Shown: piece by piece, positions 23,199-57,460 of the stretch | Position numbering within the stretch: position 1 is the stretch's first letter | How the letters are laid out: each line of letters begins with the position of its first letter | Assembly (NCBI GenBank): GCA_963845665.1 | Contig: CAWJTA010000002.1 | Span: 2,733,581-2,797,580, forward strand | Direction of reading: 5' to 3' | DNA: 64,000 bases | From: an uncultured Verrucomicrobiae bacterium | GTDB taxonomy: Bacteria; Verrucomicrobiota; Verrucomicrobiia; Limisphaerales; UBA11358 | Notes under the pieces: generated by a model | What the model saw: the letters and a program-made list of their open reading frames with translations, nothing else | What the model was told of the DNA's origin: nothing | The model's database searches: none | Made by a program: the position numbers and the translations under genes

Positions 23199-23202
23199 CA
23201 CG

Positions 23203-26825: not shown

Positions 26826-26834
26826 TGATTTAAC

Positions 26835-36700: not shown

Positions 36701-36704
36701 TTTC

Positions 36705-38846: not shown

Positions 38847-39009
38847 GATTATTGATTTAGGGTTTTGTTTTTGTTTGCTGCGCTCTGCCAGGGCCAGGGT
38901 CCGCCGAGCCTCACCTCAACACGTAAATTGAAAATGCGACGCCGAAAACATTGTTGTCGGGTATTCATGCTGATAGTTAGTTTTTACACCAGTCGTGACT
39001 TCCGCACAA

Positions 39010-39025
39010 TCCGTCAAATGACGGA
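39010..39025. promoter_or_regulatory. 7-2-7 palindromic box TCCGTCA-AA-TGACGGA, copy A (between the LamG operon and the sensor kinase)
   Basis: Exact 16-mer. On the minus strand it is followed directly by TTGTGC (39004-39009), 17 nt, then TAAAAA (38981-38986). It lies 19 nt upstream of the kinase TTG start. Confidence 0.6.
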
Positions 39026-39043
39026 GACGCGCTTTTTCATTGA

Positions 39044-42000
39044 TTGGAAGGCGAATTTACTTTACGGTTGAGCCGCTTGAACCCCTCCCACGAACAGTAT
39101 TTTTTAGCCTCCTGGCGATGCTGTTGCGGTCTGCCAAAGCTGCTGTTCTGGGTGCTGCTGGTAAATTGTGCGTGCGACCCGAAAGCGCTCTGCCAGGAAT
39201 ACCAGGTTCGAAACTGGCACATAGAAGATGGCTTGCCGGACGGCGAAATCACAGCCATTGAACAAACCCCTGACGGCTATCTTTGGATCGGCACGGCAAA
39301 GGGGTTGGCCAGATTTGACGGGACTCGGTTTAAAAGTTTTAAAGCGGGGCCGGGTTCTGTTCTCACCGATTCGCAGATTACCAGCTTACTAACTGGTCGT
39401 GACGGTACACTGTGGATAAGCACGCAGGATGGGAGCGTCATTCGTAGACGGAATGGAAAATTTGAAAACACGCAGGCTCCGGTTGACATTTTGATCGACC
39501 AAAAGACAAAGCGCGCGCCTGGAAGCTGGTTATGGGATCGCCGCATGCGGGTCATTGAAGGAACAGAAGGCAAGGATTTGCTGGATGACAGCACTCATCT
39601 CATCGGAGATGCCGAAGGGGCCGTTTGGGAATACGTTTCGGACGGGATCGTTGCGCGATTGGATGGCAATAACTGGAAGATCTTTACGCCGACCAATGGG
39701 TTGCCAGGCGGCGGGGTCAAGCAACTAACGGCGGACCAGGAAGGACGTATTTGGATTGAAGCTGGAGGCAGGTTGTATCGCTTTGGCAGCGAGGGATGGA
39801 TTTACAATTCCAACGCGGTGTCCGTAGATGAGCCCTGGCCCGTATTTGCCCCGGCAAATCATGGAGGAATGTGGGTCGCCGAACCAAAAGAAGGTTCGTG
39901 GTTGCTTGGCGGCGGACAAGTGCGAAGATTTGCCGACGGGCAGTGGCAAAGCCGCCCGGAATTAATTCCGACGACTCCTTTCTCAGCGCGTTCAACCGTT
40001 ACCTGCCTGATGGAAGATCGTTCGGGCCGCATTTGGTATGGGACAGCGGCCGGCGGAGTTTTTTTCTCCAGCCCTGATGGCAATTGGGAAAGGTTGATTG
40101 CCAAGAATCCTTTTTCCCAGGGTTATATATCATGTTTGTTTCAGGATGCGCAGGGCAATATTTGGGTGGGAACGGTGGGAGATGGTCTTTACAGAATTGC
40201 CCTGCAGCCGCTGGCCATGCTTACGCTGCCTCCCCCGCTGGAGAATGCCGAGATCAGCACGATCAGCCTGGCGCACAACGGTGCCATTTGGGTAGGGACA
40301 GCCGGCTTTGGCCTGGCTCAATGGTATGATGATAAATTCAAAATTTATGGAGAGGCGCAGGGACTAAGTGACCCTCATGTCTGCACGATCTTTGAAGATT
40401 CACAAAGCAATGTATGGGCAGGGACTTCTGAAGGACTTTTCCAATTAAAAAACCAGCGCTTTACATCAGTTGCAGGACCGCCGGAGATGTCAAATTGGGT
40501 AAAAGCTCTGTTTGAAGACCATCATAGACGGCTCTGGATTGGCACGCTCGGTGGGTTGATATGTTTGCAGGACGGCCATTTTAAGGTATTCCACTTGCGC
40601 CCCGACCAGGGGTATTGCGATATAAGGAGCATAACTGAGGATGCGTCCGGCAATATTTGGATTGGAACCATCGGCCAGGGGTTGTTTTGCCTTCCCAATG
40701 ACCAGCCGGAGAAACTTCACCGGGTGGAAGATTATCCGGCGACCGATGCCCGATCACTTTTTTACAGTAAGGATGGGTCGCTATGGGTTGGCAGTTGGGG
40801 TGAAGGCTTAATCCGGAAATACCAAAACGCGTTTACAATTTTCACCACAGATGATGGGTTACCCAGCGACAGGATTCAATCTATAATAGATGACGACGGT
40901 GGCCGGCTTTGGCTAAGTACCGACAACGGGATCGTCGGGTTTTTGCCACAAGCGATCGAGAACTACAGGCGCGGAGACAACCCGCCGCCCTCATACGAGC
41001 ACGTATCCCTGTCGGAAGGATTGGCCAACCGGAGTTGTTCTGGCTCGGGCAAACCCGTATCTGCCCGTTTGGCGAATGGCATCCTTTTGTTTCCTGATTA
41101 TGAAGGCATCGCCGAACTTAATCCGCGCACAGCGGCAACCGAACCTTTGTTGCCCACTGTTTTGCTGGAGGAAGTGCTGGCGGATGGAAAGCCGCTGGTG
41201 GCTGCGCCTGGCGGAGAGTTGCGCGTTTCTTCCAGTGCGCGGCGAATTGAGTTCGATTATACCGCGCCTGATTTGACGCTGCAGCACAATCTGAATTTTC
41301 GATACAAATTGGAAGGATTAGACCACAACTGGGTAGAAGCGGGCGGTCAAAATGTGGCGTATTACAGCCAATTAAAACCAGGGCGATACCAATTCCAGGT
41401 TATGGTTGGCGGCAGTGACGGCGTATGGCACGGAATGACACATGCGGCAAACCTCTATGTTGTGCCGCGATTATGGGAGCGGCACTGGATACAGGCGTCA
41501 GGCGGCGGAATATTCGTTTGCGCGCTGGTTAGTGGAATTGTCTGGAGACAACGGCGCAAGTTTTTGTTGCAGGTCGAACGATTGGAAATGCAGGAGGCTG
41601 TGGAAAAGGAGCGCCGCCGCATTGCGCGAGACCTGCATGATGAACTCGGAGCGCGCCTGACAGCAACTGCCCTTCAGGGTGAGTTGGCCGCCCAGGACGG
41701 AACCATCTCTGATAGCGCAAAATTCGAACTCAATTTCATGAACCGGCGCGTTCGGCAACTTATCGGATCGGTTGACGAAGTCGTTTGGACGACCGATCCC
41801 CAAAACGATTCGCTTCCGAATCTGGCCGCCTATTTATGCGATTATATTGAAACTTTTCTCGCGCCCGTCGGGATCGGTTGCAGACTGGACGTGGACCCGG
41901 ACCTGCCGAATTTGCCCTTGCCGGCGCTTGCCCGGCGCAATTTGCTCCTGGGTTCCAAAGAAGCGCTCACCAACTGTGTTCGTCACGCCAATGCGAGAAT

Positions 42001-42232
42001 CATTTATTTCAAGATTCATCTTAAAGATCATCTGTTGAACATAGAAATTTCCGATGACGGCGGCGGCTTTGCATTTGACGGCATGCGCGCAGGCGGCAAA
42101 GGCCTTCTTAATATTAAGAGCCGGATGGAACTCATCAAAGGCGAAGCCACAATACGAAGCGCAATCGGAAAAGGAACAACTGTTTTGCTTTCATTACCGG
42201 TGCCAGGATTCATTCCGGGCAATAAGAAATAA
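39044..42232 (+). CDS. Sensor histidine kinase with periplasmic two-component-regulator-propeller + Y_Y_Y domains and a HisKA_3/HATPase_c transmitter
   Basis: Repeated 'G.LW(I/V)GT..GL' propeller blades, a Y_Y_Y region ('FRYKLEGLDHNWVEAGGQNVAYYSQLKPGRYQFQV'), a TM, H-box 'ERRRIARDLHDELGARL' and 'GKGLLNIKSRMEL'. The start codon is uncertain (TTG 39044 or later). Confidence 0.9.
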   Translation: MEGEFTLRLSRLNPSHEQYFLASWRCCCGLPKLLFWVLLVNCACDPKALCQEYQVRNWHIEDGLPDGEITAIEQTPDGYLWIGTAKGLARFDGTRFKSFKAGPGSVLTDSQITSLLTGRDGTLWISTQDGSVIRRRNGKFENTQAPVDILIDQKTKRAPGSWLWDRRMRVIEGTEGKDLLDDSTHLIGDAEGAVWEYVSDGIVARLDGNNWKIFTPTNGLPGGGVKQLTADQEGRIWIEAGGRLYRFGSEGWIYNSNAVSVDEPWPVFAPANHGGMWVAEPKEGSWLLGGGQVRRFADGQWQSRPELIPTTPFSARSTVTCLMEDRSGRIWYGTAAGGVFFSSPDGNWERLIAKNPFSQGYISCLFQDAQGNIWVGTVGDGLYRIALQPLAMLTLPPPLENAEISTISLAHNGAIWVGTAGFGLAQWYDDKFKIYGEAQGLSDPHVCTIFEDSQSNVWAGTSEGLFQLKNQRFTSVAGPPEMSNWVKALFEDHHRRLWIGTLGGLICLQDGHFKVFHLRPDQGYCDIRSITEDASGNIWIGTIGQGLFCLPNDQPEKLHRVEDYPATDARSLFYSKDGSLWVGSWGEGLIRKYQNAFTIFTTDDGLPSDRIQSIIDDDGGRLWLSTDNGIVGFLPQAIENYRRGDNPPPSYEHVSLSEGLANRSCSGSGKPVSARLANGILLFPDYEGIAELNPRTAATEPLLPTVLLEEVLADGKPLVAAPGGELRVSSSARRIEFDYTAPDLTLQHNLNFRYKLEGLDHNWVEAGGQNVAYYSQLKPGRYQFQVMVGGSDGVWHGMTHAANLYVVPRLWERHWIQASGGGIFVCALVSGIVWRQRRKFLLQVERLEMQEAVEKERRRIARDLHDELGARLTATALQGELAAQDGTISDSAKFELNFMNRRVRQLIGSVDEVVWTTDPQNDSLPNLAAYLCDYIETFLAPVGIGCRLDVDPDLPNLPLPALARRNLLLGSKEALTNCVRHANARIIYFKIHLKDHLLNIEISDDGGGFAFDGMRAGGKGLLNIKSRMELIKGEATIRSAIGKGTTVLLSLPVPGFIPGNKK

Positions 42233-42236
42233 CCTT

Positions 42237-42887
42237 ATGAAAATTAAAGTCGGCATTGTCGAGGATGATCACGAGGTCAGGGAAAATTGGATCAAGGTTT
42301 TGAACGCCCATCCAAGGCTCAAATGTGTTGCAGCCTGCGACTCAGGTGAAATGGCGGTCAAGCAATTTCCTGATTACCGTCCGGAAGTAGTCCTGATGGA
42401 TATCAATTTGCCGGGCATGTCAGGGATTCAATCAACTGCGCTCTTGAAGGAACTCATGCCCAGGACCCAAATTCTCATCGTGACGATTTATTCCAACAAC
42501 AATTTCATATTTGACGCCCTTCAGGCTGGAGCCAGCGGCTACATTTTAAAGACCAATTCATCAGTGGAAGTCATTAAATCGATCATCGAAGTCGTTGATG
42601 GCGGCGCGCCGATGACCGGCCAGATTGCCCGCCGGGTTATTGAGGTCTTTCGAAAGCCGGTGCGCAGCGACCTGTCCAAAGCACAATTGACCACGCGGGA
42701 AAAAGAGATTTTGGAATTAATTGCCAAGGGTTATACCAACAAAGAAATCGCCTCGCATATCCAGGTAGAGGTGTCCACGGTGCGAACCCATATCGAACAT
42801 ATCTACGAAAAACTGCACGTTCACTGTCGAACGCAAGCCGCGGCAAAATTTTTGGGAAATACGGGTCACGATAAATCGGAAAAGTAA
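42237..42887 (+). CDS. NarL/FixJ-family response regulator (receiver + LuxR-type HTH)
   Basis: ATG lies 4 nt after the kinase stop. 'IKVGIVEDDHEVRE...VVLMDINLPGMSG', HTH 'LTTREKEILELIAKGYTNKEIASHIQVEVSTVRTHIEHIYEKLHV'. Confidence 0.93.
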   Translation: MKIKVGIVEDDHEVRENWIKVLNAHPRLKCVAACDSGEMAVKQFPDYRPEVVLMDINLPGMSGIQSTALLKELMPRTQILIVTIYSNNNFIFDALQAGASGYILKTNSSVEVIKSIIEVVDGGAPMTGQIARRVIEVFRKPVRSDLSKAQLTTREKEILELIAKGYTNKEIASHIQVEVSTVRTHIEHIYEKLHVHCRTQAAAKFLGNTGHDKSEK

Positions 42888-42946
42888 GCGCATGAGGCCG
42901 CCAAAGCTGTTCAGCGTTCACCGGCCTCAATCCAACGGATGTTATT

Positions 42947-44824
42947 GTGAAAACTATTTTTAATACCCGGGCAACGCCGATTTCCAGTTTCTTTCGGCTT
43001 TGGTCGCGAATTTGCCCTCCTCTGCCAATTCTCATCTTGCTTTTGAATCTTTGCGGGACCAGGACCCATGCTTTGGATCTTTTTCCGTCCGGTGACACGC
43101 ATCAAACGGCAACCGGTGATAAGGCTCCAGCAGCGCTTTCCTCCAGCCCTGGACGGAATCTTTCAGATCCCTCGCAGTTCACATTTGTCATGGACATGGT
43201 CCATAACAATCCCGGTGAACCGCTCCAACCCACCATCTTTCGCAATCCAAAAACCTTGAGCGATTTAGGTTATAACGGCCAGGTAATAATGGCTGAAGCC
43301 GACTCGTGCGAGAGCTTTGACTCAATCGCGCACGACATTTTGCCAAAGGGCAACGAGGCGCGGATTTGGATCGATCAGCACGCGCAGACGCTCGAACATC
43401 TGGCCGCTCAAGCCCATTCCGCCGGAATCAAAGCGTATGCCTGGATGCAATTCATCGTGCTTCCCAAGGCCCTGGTGGCGCGTTTCAAGGGCGAGATCTG
43501 CGATGACCAGGGCCGCATAGACCTTGAACGTCCTATGACGCAGAAGATAATCCGCGCGCAGATCGATGAATTGTTCGACCGCTGCCCCTCCCTCGACGGC
43601 CTGGTCGTGCGTACTGGCGAAATTTATTTGTTCGACAGCCCGTACCATGCTTCCAGCGGCCAAAGCGGTGAAAATAAAATGCAAGGCGCCACCGCGATCA
43701 TTCACGGGCCGGACAGCCATATTGCCCTGTTAAAAATCCTGCGCGACGAAGTTTGCGTGCAACGCGGAAAAATGGTTTTTTACCGAACCTGGGATTTTGG
43801 CGACAATTTTCATATCAACCCGAAATATTATCTGAAAGTAACCGATGCAATTGAACCGCATCCGAACCTCATCTTTTCCATCAAACCGCAGGCGGGAGAT
43901 TTTTTGCGCATGACCCCGTTTAATCCAACGCTTGGCATCGGCGCGCACCGGCAAATCGTGGAAGTTGAGTGCCAATGCGAAGCGTATGGCAAAGGCGCCC
44001 ATCCTTATTATGTTGGTGACGGCGTTATTAACGGCTGGGAGGAATATGCTGTGAAATCCGGCCGGCCAAAAGGCCTGCGTGATATTGTAAACAACAGGAA
44101 CTTTGCCGGTGTGTGGACGTGGTCGCGTGGCGGCGGTTGGGAAGGACCTTACATTACGAACGAACTTTGGTGCAGGTTGAATGCGTACGTTATTACCAAA
44201 TATATTGAGGCCCCAAAGTGCACTGAAGAGGAAGTCTTCAACGAGTTCGCCACTCGGCAACTTGGCTTAAAGGGGGTCGATATCAGGCGCTTCCGTGAAC
44301 TCAATCTGCTGGCAGCCGCAGCCGTGTTGCGAGGGCAATGCAGCCTATTAGGGCCCGTAGACCTTTGGTGGGCGCGAGACGATTTTATAGCGGCCCCGAA
44401 TTTGGATTTCTTTATCACGAATAACATGGTCGCTGACGCGCTTGCAGAAAAAGCCGAGGCAGTATCCATGTGGAAAAAAATTAATTCACTGGCGCAACAA
44501 ATAAACTTCCCCGATCCGCGGACAAAAGAATTTGTAGTCACGTCAGCCGCTTACGGACGCATCAAATATTCAATTTTTGAGCAGGCATGGACCATATTGC
44601 TTTACGGCGCTTCAGGGGATAAATCGGGGCATTACGACCGCAAGAGACTTTCGACTGCCATCGCCAAATACGATCGGCTATGGAAAGACTGGCAAAGACT
44701 AAAGGACCAGCATCCATCCTGTGCAACGCTATATAAGGATGTTGCTTTTCAGGATGAACCGGGCATCGGCGATGCCGTAAATCGTTATCGAAAAATCTGC
44801 CAAAAATCTCCGCCTGATTCTTGA
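42947..44824 (+). CDS. Secreted hypothetical protein, possible glycoside hydrolase
   Basis: Signal-like N-terminus, long clean ORF, 'MDMVHNNPGEP...' and a TIM-barrel-like alternation. I cannot assign a family from memory. Confidence 0.5.
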   Translation: MKTIFNTRATPISSFFRLWSRICPPLPILILLLNLCGTRTHALDLFPSGDTHQTATGDKAPAALSSSPGRNLSDPSQFTFVMDMVHNNPGEPLQPTIFRNPKTLSDLGYNGQVIMAEADSCESFDSIAHDILPKGNEARIWIDQHAQTLEHLAAQAHSAGIKAYAWMQFIVLPKALVARFKGEICDDQGRIDLERPMTQKIIRAQIDELFDRCPSLDGLVVRTGEIYLFDSPYHASSGQSGENKMQGATAIIHGPDSHIALLKILRDEVCVQRGKMVFYRTWDFGDNFHINPKYYLKVTDAIEPHPNLIFSIKPQAGDFLRMTPFNPTLGIGAHRQIVEVECQCEAYGKGAHPYYVGDGVINGWEEYAVKSGRPKGLRDIVNNRNFAGVWTWSRGGGWEGPYITNELWCRLNAYVITKYIEAPKCTEEEVFNEFATRQLGLKGVDIRRFRELNLLAAAAVLRGQCSLLGPVDLWWARDDFIAAPNLDFFITNNMVADALAEKAEAVSMWKKINSLAQQINFPDPRTKEFVVTSAAYGRIKYSIFEQAWTILLYGASGDKSGHYDRKRLSTAIAKYDRLWKDWQRLKDQHPSCATLYKDVAFQDEPGIGDAVNRYRKICQKSPPDS

Positions 44825-44923
44825 TTTCATCTTTTGATCGTGAAGCAAAAACGCTCAAATCAATTTAACGTTTGGATTGCTTCATGGACTGATCACCAAT
44901 CACCAGGACATTGTGCTTTTGGG

Positions 44924-46327
44924 TTACGGCTTGGTGGCCAGAGTCACTTTGAAGACCATGTCTCCAAACGTTTTTACATCGAGCCAGTCACGGTTCTGAA
45001 GCAATAGGACTCCAATGTCATCAAACTGGACAGGTGACCCGGTCCGCAGATCGACGACAGAGGCAATTTTGTATCCATTTTTTGGCACGCGCAAATGATC
45101 CGCATCCGGTGCAGTCGTGACGTGAATATAGAGAACAGTTGGATCTTTTAAAGAGACTGTAATTGAACCGTAGGCGCCGTCATTCCACCAGCCCGGGTTG
45201 AGCGCCGAGCCTTCGCCGCCAACCGTGTCATAGATCGATTCTGCGGCCCATGCGAAATAATTATGCAGACATTGAACCATCGGCTGGAGACTGGGAGCAA
45301 GCTTGCCATCAATCATAGGCCCGACGCCGAGCGCAAAATTCCACTCGCGCCGCTGGCCCAGCGAAGAAACCATCTGCCTGACGACGAACGTCGGGTCTTT
45401 GGCGTAACGTGAGTTTTGGTAGCCATCGACGTCCGGCCCCCTGGACGTATACCACCAGGTGCCGACGCAGGGGATGTCTTCATTATAGTCGCGGTCGGGC
45501 GGGAGAAGCCCCCACCGGACATGGGTCTTAACCAAGCCGGAAGGCCGGCTATAATCCGGATCAGCCGGGCCGGTTAGAAATTCAGTCGTTCCATAGTCGA
45601 TGTTTGGATCACTTGTGCTGCCCCATCCAAAATAATCATCGTTGTTATGAACGACGATACACCCGGGGAAGTGCTGCCTCATGTAGGCGGGCAGGTCGGA
45701 TGGACTTCCATCGATCCAGAACCCGGCAATCTCGCCGGGGCAACGGGCCGCCAATTCGTCAAGCAATCCTTTTGTTGCTTCAACATATTTCTTTTCGTTT
45801 CGCATCGATTCGTCGAGCCAGTCGCCTCCTTCAAAACCATGATCAGGTCCGCCACAAAGATAGAGCATCAGCGGGATATGTTCCTCATGACAGCGAGCCG
45901 CCAGGGCGCCTATGTAATCCTTCGTCGTCGTAACCTTAAAACCAGGCGTTTTAGCCGGGAAAAGTACTGCATGGCGATCATCGCTGTGCAGCAATGAAAA
46001 AGTGATATATCTTGCCCCCATCATTTTAGCCGTGGCCACAATATTACTGGCAATAGCATTAGGATTGTCGGCCGCCGCTTCAAACTCGGCAATGGTATTG
46101 TAATGCGTGACGTTCGCGTTGTCGTTACTGGCCCCTGTGTACAATCCCCAGTGGCAGAAAAGCCCAAACCGGGCCGGCGCATACCACTGGCTCACCCGTT
46201 CCTGGCGTTCCTGATATTCTTTCTTAAGAGGCAAATCTCCTTCAATATTCAGAGCGTCACCAGCGCGGGCAGAAACGATTACAAATAGAATAGCAATAAA
46301 TTGGGCGGCTATGCGGGTTCGCGTCAT
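44924..46327 (-). CDS. GH29-like (alpha-L-fucosidase family) protein
   Basis: Signal peptide. 'ARFGLFCHWGLYTG', 'AKMMGARYITFSLLHSDD...' and 'IPLMLYLCGG' resemble the GH29 N-terminal barrel. The similarity is distant. Confidence 0.5.
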   Translation of the reverse strand: MTRTRIAAQFIAILFVIVSARAGDALNIEGDLPLKKEYQERQERVSQWYAPARFGLFCHWGLYTGASNDNANVTHYNTIAEFEAAADNPNAIASNIVATAKMMGARYITFSLLHSDDRHAVLFPAKTPGFKVTTTKDYIGALAARCHEEHIPLMLYLCGGPDHGFEGGDWLDESMRNEKKYVEATKGLLDELAARCPGEIAGFWIDGSPSDLPAYMRQHFPGCIVVHNNDDYFGWGSTSDPNIDYGTTEFLTGPADPDYSRPSGLVKTHVRWGLLPPDRDYNEDIPCVGTWWYTSRGPDVDGYQNSRYAKDPTFVVRQMVSSLGQRREWNFALGVGPMIDGKLAPSLQPMVQCLHNYFAWAAESIYDTVGGEGSALNPGWWNDGAYGSITVSLKDPTVLYIHVTTAPDADHLRVPKNGYKIASVVDLRTGSPVQFDDIGVLLLQNRDWLDVKTFGDMVFKVTLATKP

Positions 46328-46329
46328 AA

Positions 46330-48051
46330 CTATTTGGCCCGTGGATCGAGATCAAAATTGCGAAACATGCGTAGATTGACCGGACTGCGTCCCGTGAAGC
46401 GGATCTCCCCAAAGAGCCCGCGCATCAGTGCTGTCAAAACGGCATCAGAAGCATCATAGGCGTTTATATAGGTGTCGGCTGCCACAAATTCGTCGCTGTG
46501 GAAAGGATTATCGAGTGAAATGACAATGGTTTTTTGGCCGCCAGCCATACCCGAGGTCCAGGTGTCTGACTGTGCCGGGCTGTCATCCCAGGTTTGAAAG
46601 CCGATTTCCCCAACCAGGTAGATGATAAGGTCATTTTCCGCCGCAACTTTGGTTATGTCGTCCAACCAAAGTCCCCTGTGAATGGAAGCAGAAATGCCGC
46701 GGGCCGCAAAAGCCGCCTGCAAGTGTTCAGCTGCATCTTCGACGCGCACGTGTTTGCTCGTTATTGGAATGATGGCGACATGGTGGATGGCAGTGGAATT
46801 TAGGGGCAAAAGGTGATTGCGATCACGAACCAGTGTAATGCTTTTTTCCGCGATGTTCTGCGCTGTCTCTTCGACGAAAATTCTGTCCCTGCTGTCCAAT
46901 GGACGTGATGCGGGAGCATCTATATCCAGCAGGCCAAGTTTTTGCTTTAACCGCCAGATGCGTTCCACGGCGTCGTCGAGTCGTGACACGGGAACGCGAC
47001 CACTTGCTATCGCCTTTTCCATGTCATCAAAATATCGTTCCGGCGGCCAAAGCAACATATCCGTGCCCGCAGCGAAGCAATGGACGCATGCGTCGTCGCC
47101 ATAAAATTTGCTGAAACCGCCCATAATCAACGCGTCAGAAACCACGACGCCTTTAAATCCCATTTTTTGCTTTAGAAGCTTGGTAATTAAATCGTGGGAA
47201 AGCGTGGCCGGCAGATAACGGCCATCCACCTTTCCCGATTCGCTCTGATAACACGGCAGGGAAATGTGACCGGCCATGATCGCCATCACATTATTATCGA
47301 TCAGCGCCTGGAAAACGGCGCCGTGGTTTCGGTCCCATGCCGCTTGCGTCAGCCCATTGCAGGAAGTGGTTTCGTGCTGGTTGCGATAATCCACTCCATC
47401 GCCGGGGAAATGCTTGGCAGTGGCGGCCACTCCGTTGTCCTGGTAACCGTTCACTATACTAATTAAAAGTGGCGTTGCCATCTGCGGGTCATCCGATATG
47501 CTGCGATCGGCCACGATGTAGTTGAACGGGTTTTGCACAAGGTCCGCCACGGGAGTAAACAGCCAGTTGAACCCGATTGAGCGCGCCTCGATGGCAGTGG
47601 CTCGTCCAAAATCGTATGCGAGCCTTCTTGATCGGGTCGCTCCCACACCTGGTAAATGGGTAATCCTTGTAAAACCCCGTACATTCGCGCCGGCGCCCGA
47701 CTCCATGTCCCCACAAATAATCAGGGGAATTTGCGAAGCTTTGCGCAATCGCACGATGCGCTCTTCTATTTGAGATGCCGCAGGCCCGCTGTCAAAAATG
47801 ACAGTCCCTCCATCAAATACACCGCCCACGGGATAATGCTTGAGATAGAGAGCCAGTTCCGCATCTGTCGTACCGCTATGAACCAATGATTCGCCCCGCA
47901 TTATCACGGTCTGGCCTATCTTTTCACGCAAGGATAGTCTTTTCCAGCCATCGTCCAGAGGCTGCGTTTTCAATTCGCCCTGTGCACCGCACGCAATTAA
48001 GCTAATCAGATAAAACGCAGAAATGCTGGCGATGGTATTCTTGTTGCTCAC
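46330..48051 (-). CDS. Glycoside hydrolase family 3 protein (NagZ / beta-glucosidase-like)
   Basis: 'LREKIGQTVIM', 'GFNWLFTPVADL', 'KHFPGDGVDYRNQH', 'MGFKGVVVSDAL'. There is a 2-nt gap to the downstream gene and an 11-nt gap to the upstream gene. Confidence 0.85.
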   Translation of the reverse strand: MSNKNTIASISAFYLISLIACGAQGELKTQPLDDGWKRLSLREKIGQTVIMRGESLVHSGTTDAELALYLKHYPVGGVFDGGTVIFDSGPAASQIEERIVRLRKASQIPLIICGDMESGAGANVRGFTRITHLPGVGATRSRRLAYDFGRATAIEARSIGFNWLFTPVADLVQNPFNYIVADRSISDDPQMATPLLISIVNGYQDNGVAATAKHFPGDGVDYRNQHETTSCNGLTQAAWDRNHGAVFQALIDNNVMAIMAGHISLPCYQSESGKVDGRYLPATLSHDLITKLLKQKMGFKGVVVSDALIMGGFSKFYGDDACVHCFAAGTDMLLWPPERYFDDMEKAIASGRVPVSRLDDAVERIWRLKQKLGLLDIDAPASRPLDSRDRIFVEETAQNIAEKSITLVRDRNHLLPLNSTAIHHVAIIPITSKHVRVEDAAEHLQAAFAARGISASIHRGLWLDDITKVAAENDLIIYLVGEIGFQTWDDSPAQSDTWTSGMAGGQKTIVISLDNPFHSDEFVAADTYINAYDASDAVLTALMRGLFGEIRFTGRSPVNLRMFRNFDLDPRAK

Positions 48052-48062
48052 TTATTAAATGT

Positions 48063-51000
48063 CTAGGGCGACGGAGAGATACTTCTAAAGAATAGGGTCT
48101 GATTAGTCAACCCGGTTGAATAGGGCGGCGCTGTATTGGTGACATATGTCCAGGGGCCGTGAACCGTAGGAGCCGCCTGCAAATAACCAGAGCCCCATCC
48201 TACGTTTATCTTGTTCCCGGAGATTTGAATGGACATCATCGGCGGCGTTAATGGTATCCCGGTTGAACCCACCTCATAATGCTCGGAGATTTGGGTCGGC
48301 GTCAGCGCATAGTTGTATTCCGCCACGTTCTCCATCCCCCCGTTGTAGAACCGCGTAGAGCCGCTGTTATTGTAGGCTCCCAAATACAAGGGCGTCCCGG
48401 CTGTCGCCTGCGCGTACCCGGACGAACTGCTCACCGCCAGCACCCCGTTGGTATAAACCTTGAAGCTCGTCCCATCATATGTCAGAACATAATACGACCA
48501 TGATCCTTGCAGGCTTGTCCCGGAATTCACTCGGGTCCAGGCGCCCCCGGATGCCAGCCAGCCGTACAGTAGAGGGTTGGCCCCGTTGGGATAGGCGATC
48601 TCAAACGTCCATCCGTACGGGTTAAAGGCCACGTCAAAACTTAACGGGTTCATATCCGCACCCGCTCCATTGACCGGAAAGATCGGCATCTTCAGCCAAG
48701 TTTCGACACTGAAGTTCGGCGTGTTTAAGGTGCTCGAATAAGGAATCCGGATATAGCCGCTGTTTGTGTTTTGGAAATAGATTGCTGTGTCCGAGTTCAC
48801 CCCGTTGGAATACAGTACGCCCGGACCGCCAAACGTCAGACCGGCGGTATTCATGGCTGTGCCATTGTTGGTGCCAGCCACGTCATGAATGACCGTCCCG
48901 CCCATTTCATTGAGCGGCCAGTAGGAAACAGGATGATCGGCAAGGATTGTCGTTTGATAGGATGAGTTGGTCAGGATGGTGAGGGTCGCTTTGGCGCTAG
49001 TGACGGAACCATAGGAATTTGTAATGACCACCAGGTAATCCGCGGCATTGGCCAGTGTTAAATTCGAGATCGTCAGGGTGGCGTTGGTTACGCTGGTGAT
49101 TTGGCTGTTGACTGGCAAATTCGCGTATACTCCGCCGCCGGCAACTCTCGCCATCCATTGATACGATAATTGCGCCAGTCCGGCGGCACCGACGGTGAAT
49201 TGAATGCTCTGGCCGACAATGCTCGTCTGGTTGGACGGTTGCATGGTAATAGTTGGTGCCGGGCTCAAGACAGTCAATGTTGCCACGGCGCTGTTGACCG
49301 GCCCATTCGAATTGCTGACCACGACCATATAGTCAGCAGTATTTGCAAATGTCAAATTGGAGATAGTTAAAGTTGCATTGGTCACGCTGGCGATTTGGCT
49401 GTCAGGCAGCAAATTGGTATAAATGCCGCTGCCGGTGGCACCCGCCATCCATTGATAATACTGGGAACCAATGCTGCCGGCAGTCACCGAAAATACTGCA
49501 GTTTGATCGATGTAATTAGTTTGGCTGGACGGCTGCACGGTGATGACAGGAAATGAATAAGGATTTGGAAATGGCTCGGGCTCAAAATTTGCTCCCGGGA
49601 CCCAATAGGTTCCTCCCGCCTCATAAGCGCCGATGTCTGGAGCAGCCCCAATATATCCATCTGTATAGGGTGAATATACCTCGCCTCCATCAATGGCTCC
49701 CGACCCCGTCTGGGGTACGTAGTTCGATCCCAATGGAGGGTACCAGCCATCATCAGTCAGAGTCGTGCTGCCGCTAAATGCATTGTTCTGGCTGGTTGAG
49801 TGCCAGATATTATTGATGAACGAAACATTAATATCGCCGCCCCCGTTACATAACAAGTCGGTTCCGTTCGAGACGGCAGTATTATTGATAAATAAATTAT
49901 TGGTAAACGAATTGAAACACATTCCATTGGCGTTGCTGTAACAGACGTTCCGATACACAATGTAGTTATTTTGACCTTGATCTACATATACCCCGGCCCA
50001 GCAATTGTGCGCCCAATTATGATGGATGATCGTGCCATTCCCATTGCCTCCTCCCACATACACGTAGGTAGCGCCTCCATCACTGGTCAAAAGCGTCCCA
50101 AAACCCAGGTCGTTATATGCGATATCGACATCCGTAGCGGAGGCGCCAACCAAATATCGGCCACTATACGTAAACGTGTTATTGAGGATCCTCGTCCCAT
50201 TGCCGCCGCTATAGGCAGTGACCGCCGCATAATAAGTTCCAGGATAGTAATCCACCTGCTGGATCACACAATTGCTCACAACCTCATTTTGGCCGCTGCA
50301 TCGGATGCCGTCCTGCGAACTGTATTTAATTGTCGAATTCTCCCACATGCTTCCGCTTCCGCTTACTTGGTTGGCGATGGGAACATCCATCGTCCAGTCC
50401 GCGGTTGTGTTATGTTGCACGTATTCAAGGTTGCAATTGTTCACGATGCAATCGGTGGTATTGGCCATGGAAATACCCGCAGCAAACACATACAGGCCAT
50501 TTACCGTTATGTAGGCCAGATTATCGAGGGTAAAGGCACTGGTTCTTGCCTTGATCTCGACAGTGTGATTGGTCGGGGACGCACTGTCGGGGCACCAGAG
50601 ATATAGCACCTTGGCGTTGGTGTCCAGGTACCATTCGGTTGAGATATCCAGCAGCGGTAATGCGCCGTAGATATAATAGTAGGTGGCGGTCGCACCGGAA
50701 TTGAAAATATTTCCGTTCCACGAAAGTTTCTTCGCCACGGGATCCCAGGCTGTGATAAGACGGGTATTGGCCGCGTAACCCGAATTATTGTACTCATTAG
50801 GGAATATATGAAGGGTTGCTCCCAAAAGATTTACATTTGGCAGAGAGCTATCCATCAGATTTGTCAGCGTGCAGGAATTGGGGGTCGATCGTGGCGCGTA
50901 GAGCAGATTATTGACCGTGGCATTGGGCCAGCGCGCTTCATTCATCATGACTCCATCCACGAAGAGCTGCCTGAATGAACTCGTCGTGCTCGCCTGGTAA

Positions 51001-51335
51001 ATGGAATTACTATAAACGTTCCACGTCAGGCTGATCGGGTTGGCGCCGCTGACTATCGGAATTGCACCGGGGTAAGCGGCGAACGTAATGGGCAAACCGG
51101 CCGTGCCACTATGCGCCGGCACGACTGTCTCGCGATAAGTTCCCGAAAAAATATAGCAGGTATCACCGGCATTCATGACCGATGCCGCTTTCTGGATGGT
51201 TAGAAATGCGAGGTTCGTGGTGCTTCCGGGATTTGAGTCATTCCCGGATTTTGCCACGTAGTAAACTGCAGCCTGCCCGGATTGAGCCAGAAAAACAATA
51301 GCCAGAAACGTGAAAAAAATATTTCTTACAGTCAT
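48063..51335 (-). CDS. Secreted right-handed beta-helix (pectate-lyase-fold) protein with two Ig-like modules and a C-terminal LamG module
   Basis: 'YYVAKSGNDSNPGS...TIQKAASVMNAGDTCYIFSGTYRE', many beta-helix coils, 2 x 98-aa Ig-like repeats. The LamG start 'YWPLNEMGGTVIHDVAGTNNGTAM' and the C-terminal tail are paralogous to 36705..38846. Confidence 0.85.
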   Translation of the reverse strand: MTVRNIFFTFLAIVFLAQSGQAAVYYVAKSGNDSNPGSTTNLAFLTIQKAASVMNAGDTCYIFSGTYRETVVPAHSGTAGLPITFAAYPGAIPIVSGANPISLTWNVYSNSIYQASTTSSFRQLFVDGVMMNEARWPNATVNNLLYAPRSTPNSCTLTNLMDSSLPNVNLLGATLHIFPNEYNNSGYAANTRLITAWDPVAKKLSWNGNIFNSGATATYYYIYGALPLLDISTEWYLDTNAKVLYLWCPDSASPTNHTVEIKARTSAFTLDNLAYITVNGLYVFAAGISMANTTDCIVNNCNLEYVQHNTTADWTMDVPIANQVSGSGSMWENSTIKYSSQDGIRCSGQNEVVSNCVIQQVDYYPGTYYAAVTAYSGGNGTRILNNTFTYSGRYLVGASATDVDIAYNDLGFGTLLTSDGGATYVYVGGGNGNGTIIHHNWAHNCWAGVYVDQGQNNYIVYRNVCYSNANGMCFNSFTNNLFINNTAVSNGTDLLCNGGGDINVSFINNIWHSTSQNNAFSGSTTLTDDGWYPPLGSNYVPQTGSGAIDGGEVYSPYTDGYIGAAPDIGAYEAGGTYWVPGANFEPEPFPNPYSFPVITVQPSSQTNYIDQTAVFSVTAGSIGSQYYQWMAGATGSGIYTNLLPDSQIASVTNATLTISNLTFANTADYMVVVSNSNGPVNSAVATLTVLSPAPTITMQPSNQTSIVGQSIQFTVGAAGLAQLSYQWMARVAGGGVYANLPVNSQITSVTNATLTISNLTLANAADYLVVITNSYGSVTSAKATLTILTNSSYQTTILADHPVSYWPLNEMGGTVIHDVAGTNNGTAMNTAGLTFGGPGVLYSNGVNSDTAIYFQNTNSGYIRIPYSSTLNTPNFSVETWLKMPIFPVNGAGADMNPLSFDVAFNPYGWTFEIAYPNGANPLLYGWLASGGAWTRVNSGTSLQGSWSYYVLTYDGTSFKVYTNGVLAVSSSSGYAQATAGTPLYLGAYNNSGSTRFYNGGMENVAEYNYALTPTQISEHYEVGSTGIPLTPPMMSIQISGNKINVGWGSGYLQAAPTVHGPWTYVTNTAPPYSTGLTNQTLFFRSISPSP
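48965..49555 (-). repeat. Two tandem 294-nt Ig-like coding repeats
   Basis: 'ggacggttgcatggtaat' at 49233 versus 'ggacggctgcacggtgat' at 49527. The protein repeats both end 'TNATLTISNLT(F/L)AN(T/A)ADY(M/L)VV(V/I)(S/T)NS'. Confidence 0.8.
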
Positions 51336-51423
51336 TAAAATGGGCCGCTGGCTTTAGCGGAGCGGTAAGCATTAGCCATGTGTTTGTGTTGATATTCTTA
51401 CATCAGGTTTTGCTGTTTCACAA

Positions 51424-51439
51424 TCCGTCAAATGACGGA
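51424..51439. promoter_or_regulatory. 7-2-7 palindromic box, copy B (upstream of the beta-helix/GH3/GH29-like operon)
   Basis: Exact 16-mer. On the minus strand it is followed by TTGTGA (51418-51423), 17 nt, then TAAGAA (51395-51400). The operon start codon is at 51335. Confidence 0.6.
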
Positions 51440-51499
51440 GGCTATTGTGTACAGACTCATTATTCAAAGACGCGATATCTGGAATTCTCTGATTTTGCC

Positions 51500-52987
51500 T
51501 TAATTTACATCCGTGCGAAACGGGGTCGCGGGGAGCCCTTGCTGGTTGACCAAATTTACATCGGGCACATTTGACCAGCCATAGCGAACCTCTGCAGGCT
51601 TTGCCACTAAGGGATTATAGACGACCACTTTGTTTCCCTCAATTTCCGCTATGGCGTCAAAAAACTGCCCTTTCGGGCCGGCGATTTGGAAGCCTTTAAG
51701 TTTGCCTCCTCTGGCTGCCAGGCCGCCGGTCGCATGGCTGAAGTAAATGATCGCGTGGTCTTTTTTAATTTTCATCGAATCATAGACGGGCCCCGAATAT
51801 TCTATCTTTTTGCCGTAGGCAACAGCGCGCGCCGCCAATGCAAGTCGGGCGCCGACGGGTTCTTTTCGCGTGGGATGAATATTATTCGTGTCGCCAACGT
51901 CGGTAATAACCACCATCGCCGTTCGAGGCACCTGTTGCCAGGTCAATAATTGTGCTTCACGGATTTCCGGAGTCATGTCACGCTGCGGCGCAATTTGGAC
52001 AAACAGAAATGGAAACCTGCTTTCTCCCCAGGCAATCCTCCAGCTTCGAATCAGGGCGGGGAAGAGTTTGCGATATTCATTGGCGCGCTTGTTGTTCGAC
52101 TCACCCTGGTACCAGATGACACCTGCAATTGCAAAAGGCTGAAGAGGAGCTATCATGGCATTATACAATCCGGCGGGACGGTTAAAGCTAATGGCCGGGC
52201 TTTTGGCGACCTGCACCCTGGATACATCTTTGCCTTCAGCTTTTGCTTCAGCGACGTTCGTTTGGTATTCGGCCCGGGCCTGGGCCGGATCAAATGTTTT
52301 TACGGCCAATGCCTGTCGTTCGAGGATTTGCTTTAAATCCGGGTCCTCTTCAAGAGCAGTACGAGCAGTCCAGGCTTCGGCTGGTGTTCCTCCAACGGAT
52401 GAATGAATCAGACCGATGGGGATTTTCATTGTCCTGCGAAGATCGCGTCCAAAGAAGTATCCTACCGCGGAAAAATATTTCGCCTTTCCAGGCGTTGATT
52501 CAACCCAGGACCCGGACACATCGGTCTTTGGTTCATCCGACGCCTCATGAGCAACCGTGAAAAAACGCAATTGAGAGTCTGAAGCGGTGGCTAAAGCTTC
52601 CGACGCATTCGTGGTGGCAGCCAACGGCATTTCCATGTTTGATTGCCCGCTGCAGAGCCAGACCTCACCCACCAGAACATTGGTAATCGTAACAATATTT
52701 TCACCGGCAATGGTCATAACAAATGGTCCGCCGGCTTCTAAAGGTTTGAGATGCAACATCCAGTGCTCTTCGCGCGCTGTGGTGGATACCGTTTGATTTT
52801 GAAATTTGACGGTTATTTTTTCGCCATCTCTTGCGCTGCCCCAGATTGGCAGTTTGACTCCTCGCTGCAAGACGACACCGTCGGAAAAGAGAGCATTTGG
52901 TTGGACGGCATACATCGATAATGGCCGGCAGGTCAACAACACGACGATTTGGAAAATGTGAATTATGCGCGAATTGATTTTCATCAT
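51500..52987 (-). CDS. Sialate O-acetylesterase-like (SASA/SGNH) carbohydrate esterase
   Basis: Signal peptide. 'LFSDGVVLQRGVKLPIWG', 'GEVWLCSGQSNME', 'GVIWYQGESN'. Confidence 0.85.
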   Translation of the reverse strand: MMKINSRIIHIFQIVVLLTCRPLSMYAVQPNALFSDGVVLQRGVKLPIWGSARDGEKITVKFQNQTVSTTAREEHWMLHLKPLEAGGPFVMTIAGENIVTITNVLVGEVWLCSGQSNMEMPLAATTNASEALATASDSQLRFFTVAHEASDEPKTDVSGSWVESTPGKAKYFSAVGYFFGRDLRRTMKIPIGLIHSSVGGTPAEAWTARTALEEDPDLKQILERQALAVKTFDPAQARAEYQTNVAEAKAEGKDVSRVQVAKSPAISFNRPAGLYNAMIAPLQPFAIAGVIWYQGESNNKRANEYRKLFPALIRSWRIAWGESRFPFLFVQIAPQRDMTPEIREAQLLTWQQVPRTAMVVITDVGDTNNIHPTRKEPVGARLALAARAVAYGKKIEYSGPVYDSMKIKKDHAIIYFSHATGGLAARGGKLKGFQIAGPKGQFFDAIAEIEGNKVVVYNPLVAKPAEVRYGWSNVPDVNLVNQQGLPATPFRTDVN

Positions 52988-53063
52988 TAATTGCGGTCAA
53001 GTCGGTTTGTTGTAAAGCCGGTCTATTGAGGATTTATCAGCCAAAGATTTGCGCCCTGAACAG

Positions 53064-53079
53064 TCCGTCAAATAACAGA
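53064..53079. promoter_or_regulatory. 7-2-7 box, copy C (one perfect half-site, one degenerate) upstream of the esterase gene
   Basis: 'TCCGTCA-AA-TAACAGA' has 2 mismatches in the right half. On the minus strand it is followed by CTGTTC (53058-53063), 18 nt, then TGATAA (53034-53039). The start codon is at 52987. Confidence 0.45.
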
Positions 53080-53089
53080 ACCATAGCAA

Positions 53090-53959
53090 CTATTGCGGTT
53101 GTCCTGCATACTTCATTATAAAATCCACAATTGGCGCAGGATCAGTTAGGCCGTGAGGATGATGGCCGACACCATGCTTTACGATTAACGTGATGTTCCC
53201 TCCTAAATCACGATAACGTTTGGCCACGATCCCTGTATTTTCGTCCCAAGGCACAACCGGATCCGCATCCCCGTAAACATGTAGCAGCGGGACTCTGTGG
53301 TCCGCGAGGGGTTTGAGGTTATCGATCGGATTTCCGGGATAAGCTATTGCTTCTGCGTCGGACTTGAAACCGTATGCTTTGAGCATTTTTCCCCATTCTT
53401 CCTTGCTGCCGTCACCTTTGCCCAAATTCCTGGCTTTTCCGCCCGGCCAGCTTTTGAAATCACAAACCGGGGCATCTGCATAAATACACGCCACCTTGTC
53501 AGGATTGGCTGTCGCCCAGTTATAACAATAGAGGCCGCCGCGGCTCAAACCAATCAGCGCGACTTTTTTCGCGAATCCGTATTTCTTCGTCAGTTCCCTG
53601 TAAAACGTGTCCCAAAGCTCGACTGCTTTGGGACTTCCAAACATATCTGGCGTGCTTAAAAATGCGAGATAAAGACCGTTGGTGAGAAGCGCCGCATCTG
53701 CATTTGCATAAATTCCGAAGAACTCTCCGCGCCATGCCCACGGGCGGTTCGGCAATTGTTGCCTCGGCGCGACCACGATGGCGTTCCTGCCCCCGACTTT
53801 AAAATCATACCTGTCAAAACCATTCCATTTTGATTTTATTCCCGGAAACATTGCCGCATTCGTGGAGGGCGCGTACGCCGCATCAGATCCAGCCATTCGA
53901 CCGGGCAATAGCAAAGCCACCAGGATTATAATAACAAATGGAATCAAACGCGTTGACAT
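53090..53959 (-). CDS. Secreted alpha/beta-hydrolase (esterase)
   Basis: Start taken at ATG 53959 ('MSTRLIPFVIIILVALLLPG' signal). Nucleophile elbow 'GLSRGG'. C-terminal 'HGVGHHPHG'. Confidence 0.75.
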   Translation of the reverse strand: MSTRLIPFVIIILVALLLPGRMAGSDAAYAPSTNAAMFPGIKSKWNGFDRYDFKVGGRNAIVVAPRQQLPNRPWAWRGEFFGIYANADAALLTNGLYLAFLSTPDMFGSPKAVELWDTFYRELTKKYGFAKKVALIGLSRGGLYCYNWATANPDKVACIYADAPVCDFKSWPGGKARNLGKGDGSKEEWGKMLKAYGFKSDAEAIAYPGNPIDNLKPLADHRVPLLHVYGDADPVVPWDENTGIVAKRYRDLGGNITLIVKHGVGHHPHGLTDPAPIVDFIMKYAGQPQ

Positions 53960-53993
53960 GACCGGCTGTTGTATATTTAAAAATTTGTTCGAG

Positions 53994-54019
53994 TACAATC
54001 CGTCAAATGACGGATTGTA
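53994..54019. promoter_or_regulatory. 7-2-7 box, copy D, extended to a perfect 26-nt palindrome between divergent genes
   Basis: 'TACAATCCGTCA-AA-TGACGGATTGTA'. Minus side: TTGTAC (53993-53998), 17 nt, TATACA (53970-53975), then 10 nt to ATG 53959. Plus side: TTGTAA (54015-54020), 17 nt, TAAACA (54038-54043), then 13 nt to TTG 54057. Confidence 0.65.
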
Positions 54020-54056
54020 ATGCGGATCGGAAATCATTAAACAAATCATATAAGTT

Positions 54057-56750: not shown

Positions 56751-56811
56751 AGTGGCCACAGCGCAACTCACCCTTGAGGGGAGGGACACATTCGCGAACT
56801 TTTAAATCCAA

Positions 56812-56888
56812 TGGTGCACGCATCAGGAGTTGAACCTGAAACCTTCTGATCCGTAGTCAGATGCTCTATCCAATTGAGCTATGCGTGC
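56812..56888 (-). tRNA. tRNA-Arg (anticodon ACG), CCA encoded
   Basis: Hand-folded 77 nt: GCACGCA-TA-GCTC-AATTGGATA-GAGC-A-TCTGA-CTACGGA-TCAGA-AGGTT-TCAGG-TTCAACT-CCTGA-TGCGTGC-A-CCA. All four stems are fully Watson-Crick paired. Confidence 0.95.
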
Positions 56889-57460
56889 CCATCGAAAACC
56901 TTGAAGATTCAGCCCCGCTATTGGTGCCATGTGGTCTGACGGCACCGGGACGCCTCTTGCAAATAACACTGCAAAAGTAAGCACAATCGGTGCGAACGGC
57001 AAGGGAAAAATTCCTCGCCATGGAGGCCGTTCGGTGTCCGGCCCGCGGGCTGCAACATTCAAACGCGTTCCATGAACCTGGCAGGGGACCCTCCCGGGCT
57101 GACCGCCATAGCTTTCGAGACGGCGGCCCCGCCTGGGCACGTGAGATCGCAAGCGGCGCTACCACCGGCGTAGTGCGCCGTCCCTGCTACAGTCAGAATT
57201 GAGAACATCAGCCGTGTCCGTTACGTTTCCATTATTCCCTCCTTTGTTGTTGACAAAGTTTTCTTATTCTGACTATCCTGCCTGTCTTCAGCGGGTTTTA
57301 AAAGGAACGATTCAATTGGATCGGTCGTGGTTGCTTGATTTTTTGCTCGGCGGCCTGCTCGGCGCTTTGTGCAAAAATCTGTGGCGCATCTGCTTCCCTC
57401 CAGTTAGATCGTTTCGGCTTAGGCGGCAGGAAGGTCCTGCCGTCAACCAAGGAGAAACAC

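Follow-up and report, generated by a model that had tools for sequence, protein, structure and literature searches.

A 64,000-nt stretch of contig CAWJTA010000002.1 from an uncultured Verrucomicrobiae bacterium (64 kb; hereafter the window, meaning the whole stretch that was analyzed) encodes a glycan-degradation island in which a 16-bp inverted repeat (hereafter the box) recurs ahead of gene starts, next to genes for a sensor histidine kinase and a NarL/FixJ-type response regulator. An earlier note on this DNA had proposed that the palindrome, together with weak -35 and -10 elements, marks the predicted regulon of the adjacent NarL-type system. The analysis presented here suggests that this proposal is largely right and that the box belongs to a real, conserved operator-promoter module of a NarL/FixJ-type regulon, as indicated by boxes at orthologous positions in related islands, by TTGY and TA elements that face genes, by half-sites that differ with the recognition helix of the linked regulator, and by the precedent of the Escherichia coli yeaR promoter. 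We put at about three in four the probability that the response regulator encoded at 42237-42887 uses the box as its operator. Shown directly are the sites, their conservation and directionality, the fact that they are linked to the regulator gene, and a half-site that changes along with the recognition helix.

The box, TCCGTCAAATGACGGA, occurs exactly at 39010-39025 (box A), 51424-51439 (box B), and 53999-54014 (box D), and a copy with two mismatches, TCCGTCAAATAACAGA, is present at 53064-53079 (box C). Both mismatches in box C fall in the promoter-distal arm, leaving the proximal arm, TGACGGA, intact. A search of the window reproduced these four positions as they had been reported earlier. 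At a threshold of three or fewer mismatches, a total of 7 strand-matches were recovered versus a mean of 0.78 in 100 dinucleotide-preserving shuffles, none of which (0 of 100) reached 7. With the central two bases left free and up to three mismatches allowed, the 64 kb window yielded just two additional sites, at 1027 and 27980; each has three mismatches, both lie within coding sequence, and both look like chance matches, in agreement with the previous statement that the window holds no other full copy. All four copies (A to D) are intergenic, as had been claimed, with box A located between the divergent LamG and kinase operons and box D between two divergent genes. Box D does fall within the longest possible open reading frame (ORF) of the alpha/beta-hydrolase gene (ATG 54106), but the start that precedes the hydrolase signal peptide is ATG 53959, and box D is therefore intergenic as well.

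Each copy has the arrangement TCCGTCA-NN-TGACGGA, that is, two inverted 7-bp half-sites separated by 2 bp (TCCGTCA-AA-TGACGGA as read at box A). The left flank is ACAA in copies A, B, and D and ACAG in copy C, and the right flank of copy D is TTGT, such that box D forms a 24-bp palindrome. The ACAA/TTGT-type flank points to a gene start in five of five cases and, in the unidirectional copies A, B, and C, the central dinucleotide is TT when read toward the target gene. Conservation extends beyond the 16 bp, and the element is directional.

The flanks are parts of candidate promoters, five in total. Promoter A (38981-39009, minus strand) comprises TTGTGC (39009-39004), a 17-nt spacer, and TAAAAA (38986-38981), and would serve the LamG, pseudopilin, and GH36-like genes. 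Promoter B (51395-51423, minus strand) has TTGTGA, 17 nt, and TAAGAA, while promoter C (53034-53063, minus strand), ahead of the gene for a SASA-type carbohydrate esterase, has CTGTTC, 18 nt, and TGATAA. The two promoters at box D diverge: D-left (53970-53998, minus strand; TTGTAC, 17 nt, TATACA) lies 10 nt ahead of ATG 53959 of the alpha/beta-hydrolase gene, and D-right (54015-54043, plus strand; TTGTAA, 17 nt, TAAACA) lies 13 nt ahead of TTG 54057 of the beta-helix/CBM6 gene. The hexamers and spacings listed in the earlier note are present at all five promoters. At copy D, the -10 hexamers are located 10-13 nt from the start codons ATG 53959 and TTG 54057 (intervals 53959-53975 and 54038-54059, hexamer and start codon included), and the -10 hexamer of the orthologous hydrolase promoter in L210 (interval 9983-10003) is likewise 12 nt from the start. 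With a -10 element so near to the start codon, near-leaderless mRNAs are predicted; no Shine-Dalgarno sequence is visible.

A position matrix was compiled from 28 gene-facing box sides and compared to 18 control sides that face a 3' end or the kinase gene. On the gene-facing sides, the bases that follow the box are T (27 sides), T (22), G (26), and C or T (all 28); T occupies position +24 in 21 sides and A occupies position +25 in 22, followed by A-rich positions, whereas the 17 positions between TTGY and TA carry little information. On the control sides, TTGY was found once and TA at +24/+25 once, with a background TA frequency of 0.033. The possibility that TTGT is a mere extension of the palindrome was rejected on these grounds, since TTGY is confined to gene-facing sides (26 of 28, versus 1 of 18 control sides). 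The first flanking T, which is common to both sides, probably belongs to the operator, which would then span about 18 bp (A-TCCGTCA-TT-TGACGGA-T).

If transcription is assumed to start 7 nt past the -10 hexamer, the matrix places the box at -51 to -36 with its centre at -43.5, close to the value of -43 given previously. The box adjoins the -35 hexamer and the -10 hexamer follows at 17 +/- 1 nt, the layout of an activator site. In the box-A promoters of the window and its orthologues, the paired hexamers stay in register (TTGTGC/TAAAAA, TTGCGC/TTATGA, TTGTAA/TAAATT, TAGCGC/TTATAA, and TTGTGC/TAAAGA) and the 17-nt spacer length is kept, while the spacer sequence has diverged. Since the spacer sequence is not conserved, it is position rather than ancestry that is maintained, and hexamers in register across a diverged spacer are the apparent footprint of -35 and -10 elements. 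A scan of 38000-57500 with E. coli-type sigma-70 and terminator consensus models recovered none of the box-linked promoters (0), and its total did not exceed that of shuffled controls. That such a consensus scan misses the box promoters indicates that their core elements are weak. The contrast between these and the near-consensus promoter of the kinase gene, described below, fits activator dependence.

Conservation was assessed in eight Verrucomicrobiae islands totaling 156 kb (L121, L203, L204, L206, L208, L209, L210, and L215; handles of the form L121 denote fetched loci), which were picked through homologues of the regulator and the alpha/beta-hydrolase by exact-protein look-ups and not through the box itself; their regulators are 74-81% identical to that of the window. 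These islands contain 18 boxes with at most one mismatch, compared to 0.025 expected. Of these, 17 lie wholly outside the longest-ORF set, even though only 8.5% of bases are non-coding, and the 18th touches only the part of a GH29 ORF that extends upstream beyond the called start; all 18 are intergenic. A box adjoins the kinase or regulator gene in all seven of the fetched loci that carry those genes. In six of the seven, it separates the kinase gene from the divergent gene, as box A does in the window, and in L215 it is found directly past the regulator gene. Boxes orthologous to box A are located at L121 3350, L203 6748, L204 6747, L206 6749, and L209 16293. An exact counterpart of box B lies between the start of the beta-helix/LamG orthologue and the end of the SASA orthologue at L007 6354, on a contig of a Verrucomicrobiae metagenome-assembled genome (MAG) whose genes are orthologous to those of the island at 62-83% amino-acid identity. 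Orthologues of box D (L208 7275 and L210 9944) are divergent, stand beside the alpha/beta-hydrolase gene, and carry TTGY on both sides, and the SASA homologue of L203 has a box at 15178 followed by TTGTGC.

Across species whose proteins are 62-83% identical, then, about 22 bp are conserved at orthologous positions amid diverged flanks. Conservation of the box at orthologous promoters, a check named in the earlier note, was accordingly found in the eight protein-fetched islands and in L007. The content of the presumed regulon is also kept while gene order is shuffled: LamG, pseudopilin, GH36-like, GH29, GH3, SASA, alpha/beta-hydrolase, beta-helix/CBM6, and GH127 genes recur, and GH116 occurs in the same gene strings as regulon genes in the related islands. 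A scan of 185,579 species genomes for the 16-mer returned at least 119 loci. Among the matches listed, most are chance occurrences or terminator stems in unrelated phyla, and just two (L007 and L051) are informative, representing the orthologous island. Two other matches were rejected as operator copies: L061 is located inside an ORF, and L099 (Opitutales) departs from the box-promoter architecture. An additional 8.8 kb metagenome contig (L001; 99.98% identity) derives from the same strain and is uninformative for conservation.

The putative reader of the box is encoded at 42237-42887 (plus strand) and is a 216-aa response regulator with Response_reg (5e-23) and GerE (2e-17) domains in Pfam, a receiver aspartate at position 55, and the recognition helix VSTVRTHIEHIYEKL. 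Residues D10, D55, T83, and K105 are invariant across 33 regulator homologues, and the protein matches the structures of VraR, DevR, and NarL, its closest solved relatives, over its full length (E 1e-26 to 1e-31). Judged by these features, it is a complete NarL/FixJ-type protein with every hallmark of a functional one. Its family is large in Verrucomicrobiota metagenomes (7929 of 8000 scored candidates at E<=1e-20), with many members 65-88% identical. The kinase gene (39152-42232, plus strand) ends 4 nt ahead of the regulator gene and encodes a 1026-1062 aa sensor histidine kinase with a Reg_prop/Y_Y_Y beta-propeller sensor (Reg_prop 1e-47, Y_Y_Y 3e-12), HisKA_3, and HATPase_c domains in Pfam, in agreement with the earlier description of a HisKA_3 kinase with a Y_Y_Y propeller paired with a NarL/FixJ-type regulator. 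Related loci contain this gene pair too, mostly adjacent but divergent in L215 and apart in L213. The window ORFs scanned against Pfam included no other DNA-binding regulator.

The earlier note had further suggested feedback on the kinase operon, given that box A lies 19 nt upstream of the kinase start. That start, TTG 39044, opens the longest kinase ORF, but an alternative start is available at GTG 39152; conservation among orthologues, as judged by N-terminal alignment, begins only at about 39150, and on contig L001, which is nearly identical, the gene is called from window position 39152. The kinase thus probably starts near 39152 and not at TTG 39044. The intervening DNA holds a separate, consensus-like promoter for the kinase-regulator operon (39040-39068, plus strand; TTGATT, 17 nt, TACGGT), equivalents of which are present in L121, L203, L204, and L206 (TTGACG, TTGATG, or TTGAAC; 16 or 17 nt; TATTGT, TATTCT, or TATCGT), giving the general form TTGAnn-16/17-TAttnT. 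The distance between the box and this promoter is 14 nt in the window versus 22-23 nt in the four relatives, which puts the box centre at about -57.5 in the former and about -65.5 in the latter, and the phase is therefore not conserved. With the start moved to about 39152 and a separate, conserved promoter lying at a distance that is not kept, feedback through box A is unsupported, and the kinase-regulator operon is probably expressed constitutively from its own promoter.

The linkage between box and regulator is strengthened by comparison of recognition helices with half-sites. Aligned regulators that are 72-100% identical to that of the window, including all of those from islands with the canonical box, keep the helix STVRTH(I/V)EHI, followed by Y in all but one, and the canonical-box islands with this STVRTH helix carry the half-site TCCGTCA. 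A 70% identical relative with the helix YTVRKHVEHIY is associated with TTAGTCA-TT-TGCCGAA followed by TAGACC, 17 nt, and TAAATT, which occurs twice (L211 2762 and 6732), once upstream of the gene divergent from the kinase and once upstream of the next gene. For a 62% identical relative with the helix GTIKVHLEHIY, two copies are present (L123 4476 and 5295): a perfect TATGCCA-TT-TGGCATA followed by TAGCGG, 17 nt, and TAGAAC lies past the regulator gene, and a one-mismatch copy followed by TAGAAG, 17 nt, and TAAAGT lies ahead of it. The same layout of box, hexamer, 17 nt, and TA is seen beside a more distant regulator homologue with TCATCCA-TT-TGGATTA (L137 1084). Within a layout that stays the same, the helix and half-site positions 2, 3, and 5 change in concert, as would be expected if the adjacent regulator reads the box, and the distant 7-2-7 palindromes hint at a family-wide operator code. 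In 613 kb around 40-62% identical regulator relatives, taken from the matches listed in a regulator-alignment scan of metagenomes, the canonical box was not found; four two-mismatch matches were recovered versus about two estimated by chance. One of the loci examined, L163, contains two identical stretches of more than 80 nt that begin at 4555 and 5509, 954 nt apart, each with TTCGTCAAATGTCACA. These are probably a tandem domain duplication inside a gene and not operators.

The geometry that the earlier note ascribed to NarL heptamers, a 7-2-7 inverted repeat, has an exact precedent in E. coli, where a single NarL site, TAACCAATAAATGGTA, located just upstream of the -35 element of yeaR and centred at -43.5, is sufficient for activation (PMC10853779). 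The accompanying assertion that a centre near -43 is the classic position for class II activators is only partly borne out: the position holds, whereas the mode published for NarL at such a site differs from the sigma region 4 contact that the label implies, given that cryo-electron microscopy at yeaR revealed a non-canonical class II complex in which the C-terminal domain of the RNA polymerase alpha subunit occupies the minor groove between the NarL monomers (PMC10853779) with no contact to sigma region 4 (PMC10853779). By analogy, the A/T-rich centre of the box, CATTTG, would fit a NarL-like mode of binding by the alpha-subunit C-terminal domain. Like NarX/NarL at yeaR-yoaG, the island encodes a HisKA_3 kinase together with a NarL/FixJ regulator composed of a receiver and a GerE helix-turn-helix (HTH), and its promoters share with yeaR the 16-bp inverted heptamers 2 bp apart, directly upstream of the -35 element, with one site per promoter. 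The island half-site, TCCGTCA, departs from the NarL heptamer consensus, TACYYMT, and the island recognition helix has R, T, and E where NarL has K188, V189, and K192. The sensors also differ, being a periplasmic Y_Y_Y beta-propeller in the island and a nitrate-binding module in NarX, and, in contrast to the yeaR system, the island targets are glycan-degrading genes in the phylum Verrucomicrobiota.

Two other systems offer partial parallels. The hybrid two-component systems (HTCS) of Bacteroides also tie a periplasmic Reg_prop/Y_Y_Y beta-propeller to control of a local glycoside-hydrolase island, with one sensor for one locus. In the island, however, a HisKA_3-type kinase and the 216-aa regulator are separate proteins and not a fusion, and a GerE/LuxR-type domain serves as the output where HTCS have AraC. 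The earlier comparison to Bacteroides hybrid control built from different parts is consistent with this combination of a shared sensor domain, no fusion, and GerE in place of AraC. LuxR and TraR are activators in which a dimeric GerE-type HTH protein binds a 20-bp palindrome near -42.5 that adjoins or overlaps the -35 element of a weak promoter. The island regulator resembles them in its GerE-type HTH, predicted here to act as a dimer, and in a palindrome at the -35 element of a weak promoter; unlike it, LuxR and TraR are ligand-binding, unphosphorylated one-component proteins whose boxes are 18-20 bp with another half-site spacing.

Taken together, these features suggest a mechanism in which the Y_Y_Y/beta-propeller kinase would sense a periplasmic glycan breakdown product and phosphorylate the regulator on Asp55. 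The regulator would then dimerize and bind the two inverted 7-bp half-sites of a box that abuts a weak -35 element (TTGYnn), with a TA-initiated -10 element 17 nt further on, and the dimer, centred at about -43.5, would recruit RNA polymerase in the manner of NarL at yeaR, thereby switching on the five promoters. These promoters would drive about nine genes encoding glycosidases, esterases, and LamG/pseudopilin surface proteins, while the kinase-regulator operon would be kept on separately, and probably constitutively, by its own consensus-like promoter. Binding, activation as opposed to repression, the transcription starts, and the signal are what we infer in this scheme.

Several observations weigh against assigning the box to the adjacent regulator or against parts of the scheme. 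The relationship between helix and half-site rests on three classes, a small sample. A loose architecture scan of the distant loci (a CA..TG palindrome, T.G, and TA at +24/25) gave 8 matches versus 1-9 (mean of about 4) in shuffles, which is not significantly above chance overall, and the individually convincing matches are just those in L123, L211, and perhaps L137. Assignment of the -10 elements presumes an E. coli-like geometry for a phylum with few well-described promoters, and both copy-D promoters would produce leaders of a predicted 3-7 nt. The box has been seen in the window and its relatives, and further or dispersed copies may exist elsewhere in the source genome. Moreover, L210 carries three boxes and no regulator gene within the 21 kb fetched.

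Among the alternatives to activation by the adjacent regulator, the one that fares best, though it is still unlikely, is that the regulator binds the box but represses, with the bound state blocking the adjacent -35 element until a glycan signal relieves it. The box does touch the -35 hexamer, and NarL-family proteins repress at some promoters (PMC10853779; general knowledge). Set against this, the site at -51 to -36 lies upstream of the -35 element and leaves the -35 element, the -10 element, and the start, where repressors usually bind, uncovered, and the box-linked hexamers are poor in comparison to the near-consensus kinase promoter. Weak core elements at a fixed distance from a site are a signature of activator-dependent promoters, and the identical geometry activates at yeaR.

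A more doubtful possibility is that another transcription factor reads the box, or that the box plus TTGY constitutes the -35 region of an alternative sigma factor of the extracytoplasmic function (ECF) type, such that the neighboring two-component genes are coincidental. The boxes of L210 just mentioned are compatible with this, as is the directionality of the motif, in which the central TT and TTGY always read toward the gene in unidirectional sites. Yet the constant association of the box with the kinase or regulator gene (seven of seven loci carrying them) and the change of the half-site when the recognition helix of the regulator changes would not be expected of an unrelated factor, the Pfam scan of ORFs turned up no second DNA-binding regulator, and conservation is as high in the promoter-distal arm as in the proximal arm, which argues for a dimeric HTH protein and against a sigma -35 element.

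The last alternative, a structural or selfish element with no regulatory role (a terminator stem, a repeat like the repetitive extragenic palindromic (REP) sequences, or a miniature mobile element), is very improbable. In its favor, the 16-mer matches listed from unrelated phyla are mostly hairpin stems flanked by A-runs and T-runs, one Myxococcota MAG has the 16-mer as the core of a dispersed palindrome of greater length, the 3' ends of the upstream genes come shortly before boxes B and C, and a 6-bp RNA hairpin can form from the box. Against it, none of the copies is followed by a T-run in the direction of transcription, the hairpin is not formed by copy C, all eight variant sites are uncompensated (seven are changed in one arm only; in L215 19784 both arms are changed, yet pairing is not restored), about 22 bp are kept with diverged flanks at orthologous positions, and every copy lies ahead of a gene start, with the -35 and -10 elements at fixed distances. 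Assignment of the box to the intrinsic-terminator or REP-like class was rejected for lack of compensation, lack of a T-run, and the unfolded copy C. In the Myxococcota MAG (BC1.7), a palindrome of approximately GCCCGACGCnTT-box-AAnGCGTCGGGC occurs at four places on three contigs of one genome (L006 4433, L082 5938, L093 7364, and L104 4373), with diverged flanks in the L104 copy; it looks like a dispersed REP-like hairpin that is unrelated to the Verrucomicrobial operator.

With operator function for the adjacent regulator remaining the favored reading, the genes placed behind the five promoters can be described as its candidate targets, and a Pfam scan agrees with the gene content that had been predicted for all five. 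Target operon A (33231-38846, minus strand) encodes LamG/Ig (36705-38846), prepilin-type N-methylation (35774-36700), and Melibiase/GH36-like (33231-35630) proteins in Pfam. Target operon B (44924-51335, minus strand) encodes beta-helix/Ig/LamG (48063-51335), GH3 (46330-48051), and GH29 alpha-L-fucosidase (44924-46327) proteins, also by Pfam. The SASA-type carbohydrate esterase (51500-52987, minus strand) is behind promoter C, the alpha/beta-hydrolase (53090-53959, minus strand) is behind promoter D-left, and the beta-helix/CBM6 protein (54057-56750, plus strand) is behind promoter D-right. The Pfam scan of the island ORFs turned up LamG and prepilin-type proteins but no SusC/SusD pair.

The kinase-regulator operon contains a third gene (42947-44824, plus strand) that encodes a 625-aa secreted protein with a GH67/GH138-like predicted fold. 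This protein has no Pfam family and no sequence match in the PDB, while more than 1,200 homologues annotated as hypothetical exist, and its gene comes after the regulator gene in L121, L122, and L203-L207, that is, in most loci fetched through regulator homologues. Its AlphaFold model (predicted local distance difference test (pLDDT) 87; predicted template modeling (pTM) score 0.86) resembles GH67 alpha-glucuronidases and the GH138 rhamnogalacturonan-II alpha-galacturonidase (Foldseek E 1e-10 to 1e-8), at query-normalized TM scores of 0.51-0.55 and 10-14% identity. The modeled fold indicates that the protein is probably a glycosidase of an unclassified GH family that is co-expressed with the sensor, and it is possibly a constitutively expressed enzyme that makes the inducer.

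Two neighboring features lack a box. The first, a Bat/MoxR-type operon at 21182-29335 (plus strand) just upstream of the island, encodes an AAA_3 MoxR ATPase, a DUF58 protein, two BatA/vWA proteins, a BatD-like protein, and a TPR protein, and seems to have no connection with the island. The second is a gene at 57335-59182 (plus strand), separated from the CBM6 gene upstream of it by 585 nt in which no box occurs. Its 615-aa product carries a Peptidase_S74 domain, an intramolecular chaperone ('chaperone of endosialidase') that is more usual in phage tail-fibre proteins.

A wider reading, which combines these observations and can be offered only tentatively, is that the box is one case of a promoter code used throughout the Verrucomicrobiota, with many pairs of a Y_Y_Y kinase and a NarL-type regulator, paralogous as well as orthologous, each controlling one glycan island. 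The fixed module would comprise an 18-bp operator abutting TWGY, a 17-nt spacer, and TA. Half-site positions 2, 3, and 5 would set specificity and co-vary with two or three residues of the recognition helix, the pairs at hand being STVRTH with TCCGTCA, YTVRKH with TTAGTCA and TTCGGCA, and GTIKVH with TATGCCA. The GH67/GH138-like third gene would encode a constitutive 'sentinel' enzyme that generates the inducer. If this promoter-code reading is true, the operator would delimit glycan-utilization loci in a phylum without SusC/D, each controlled by a circuit insulated from the others.

No description of the motif or of such regulons in Verrucomicrobiota was found in the literature searched, the coverage of which is incomplete. 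As a mechanism, the binding of a NarL-type dimer to a 7-2-7 site at -43.5 is well established, and the advance lies in scope and annotation power rather than in principle. Regulation of polysaccharide breakdown in the Verrucomicrobiota is almost unknown, and their glycan loci lack the SusC/D genes that delimit the polysaccharide utilization loci of Bacteroidota. The module provides a predicted example of an activator-dependent promoter in this phylum, as the kinase promoter does of a constitutive one, and it suggests a small recognition code for which the box DNA, the regulator, and the five promoters are concrete reagents. For the biology of these bacteria, it would offer a sequence-only route to assigning genes to one regulon, including those that encode LamG, pseudopilin, and unclassified proteins.

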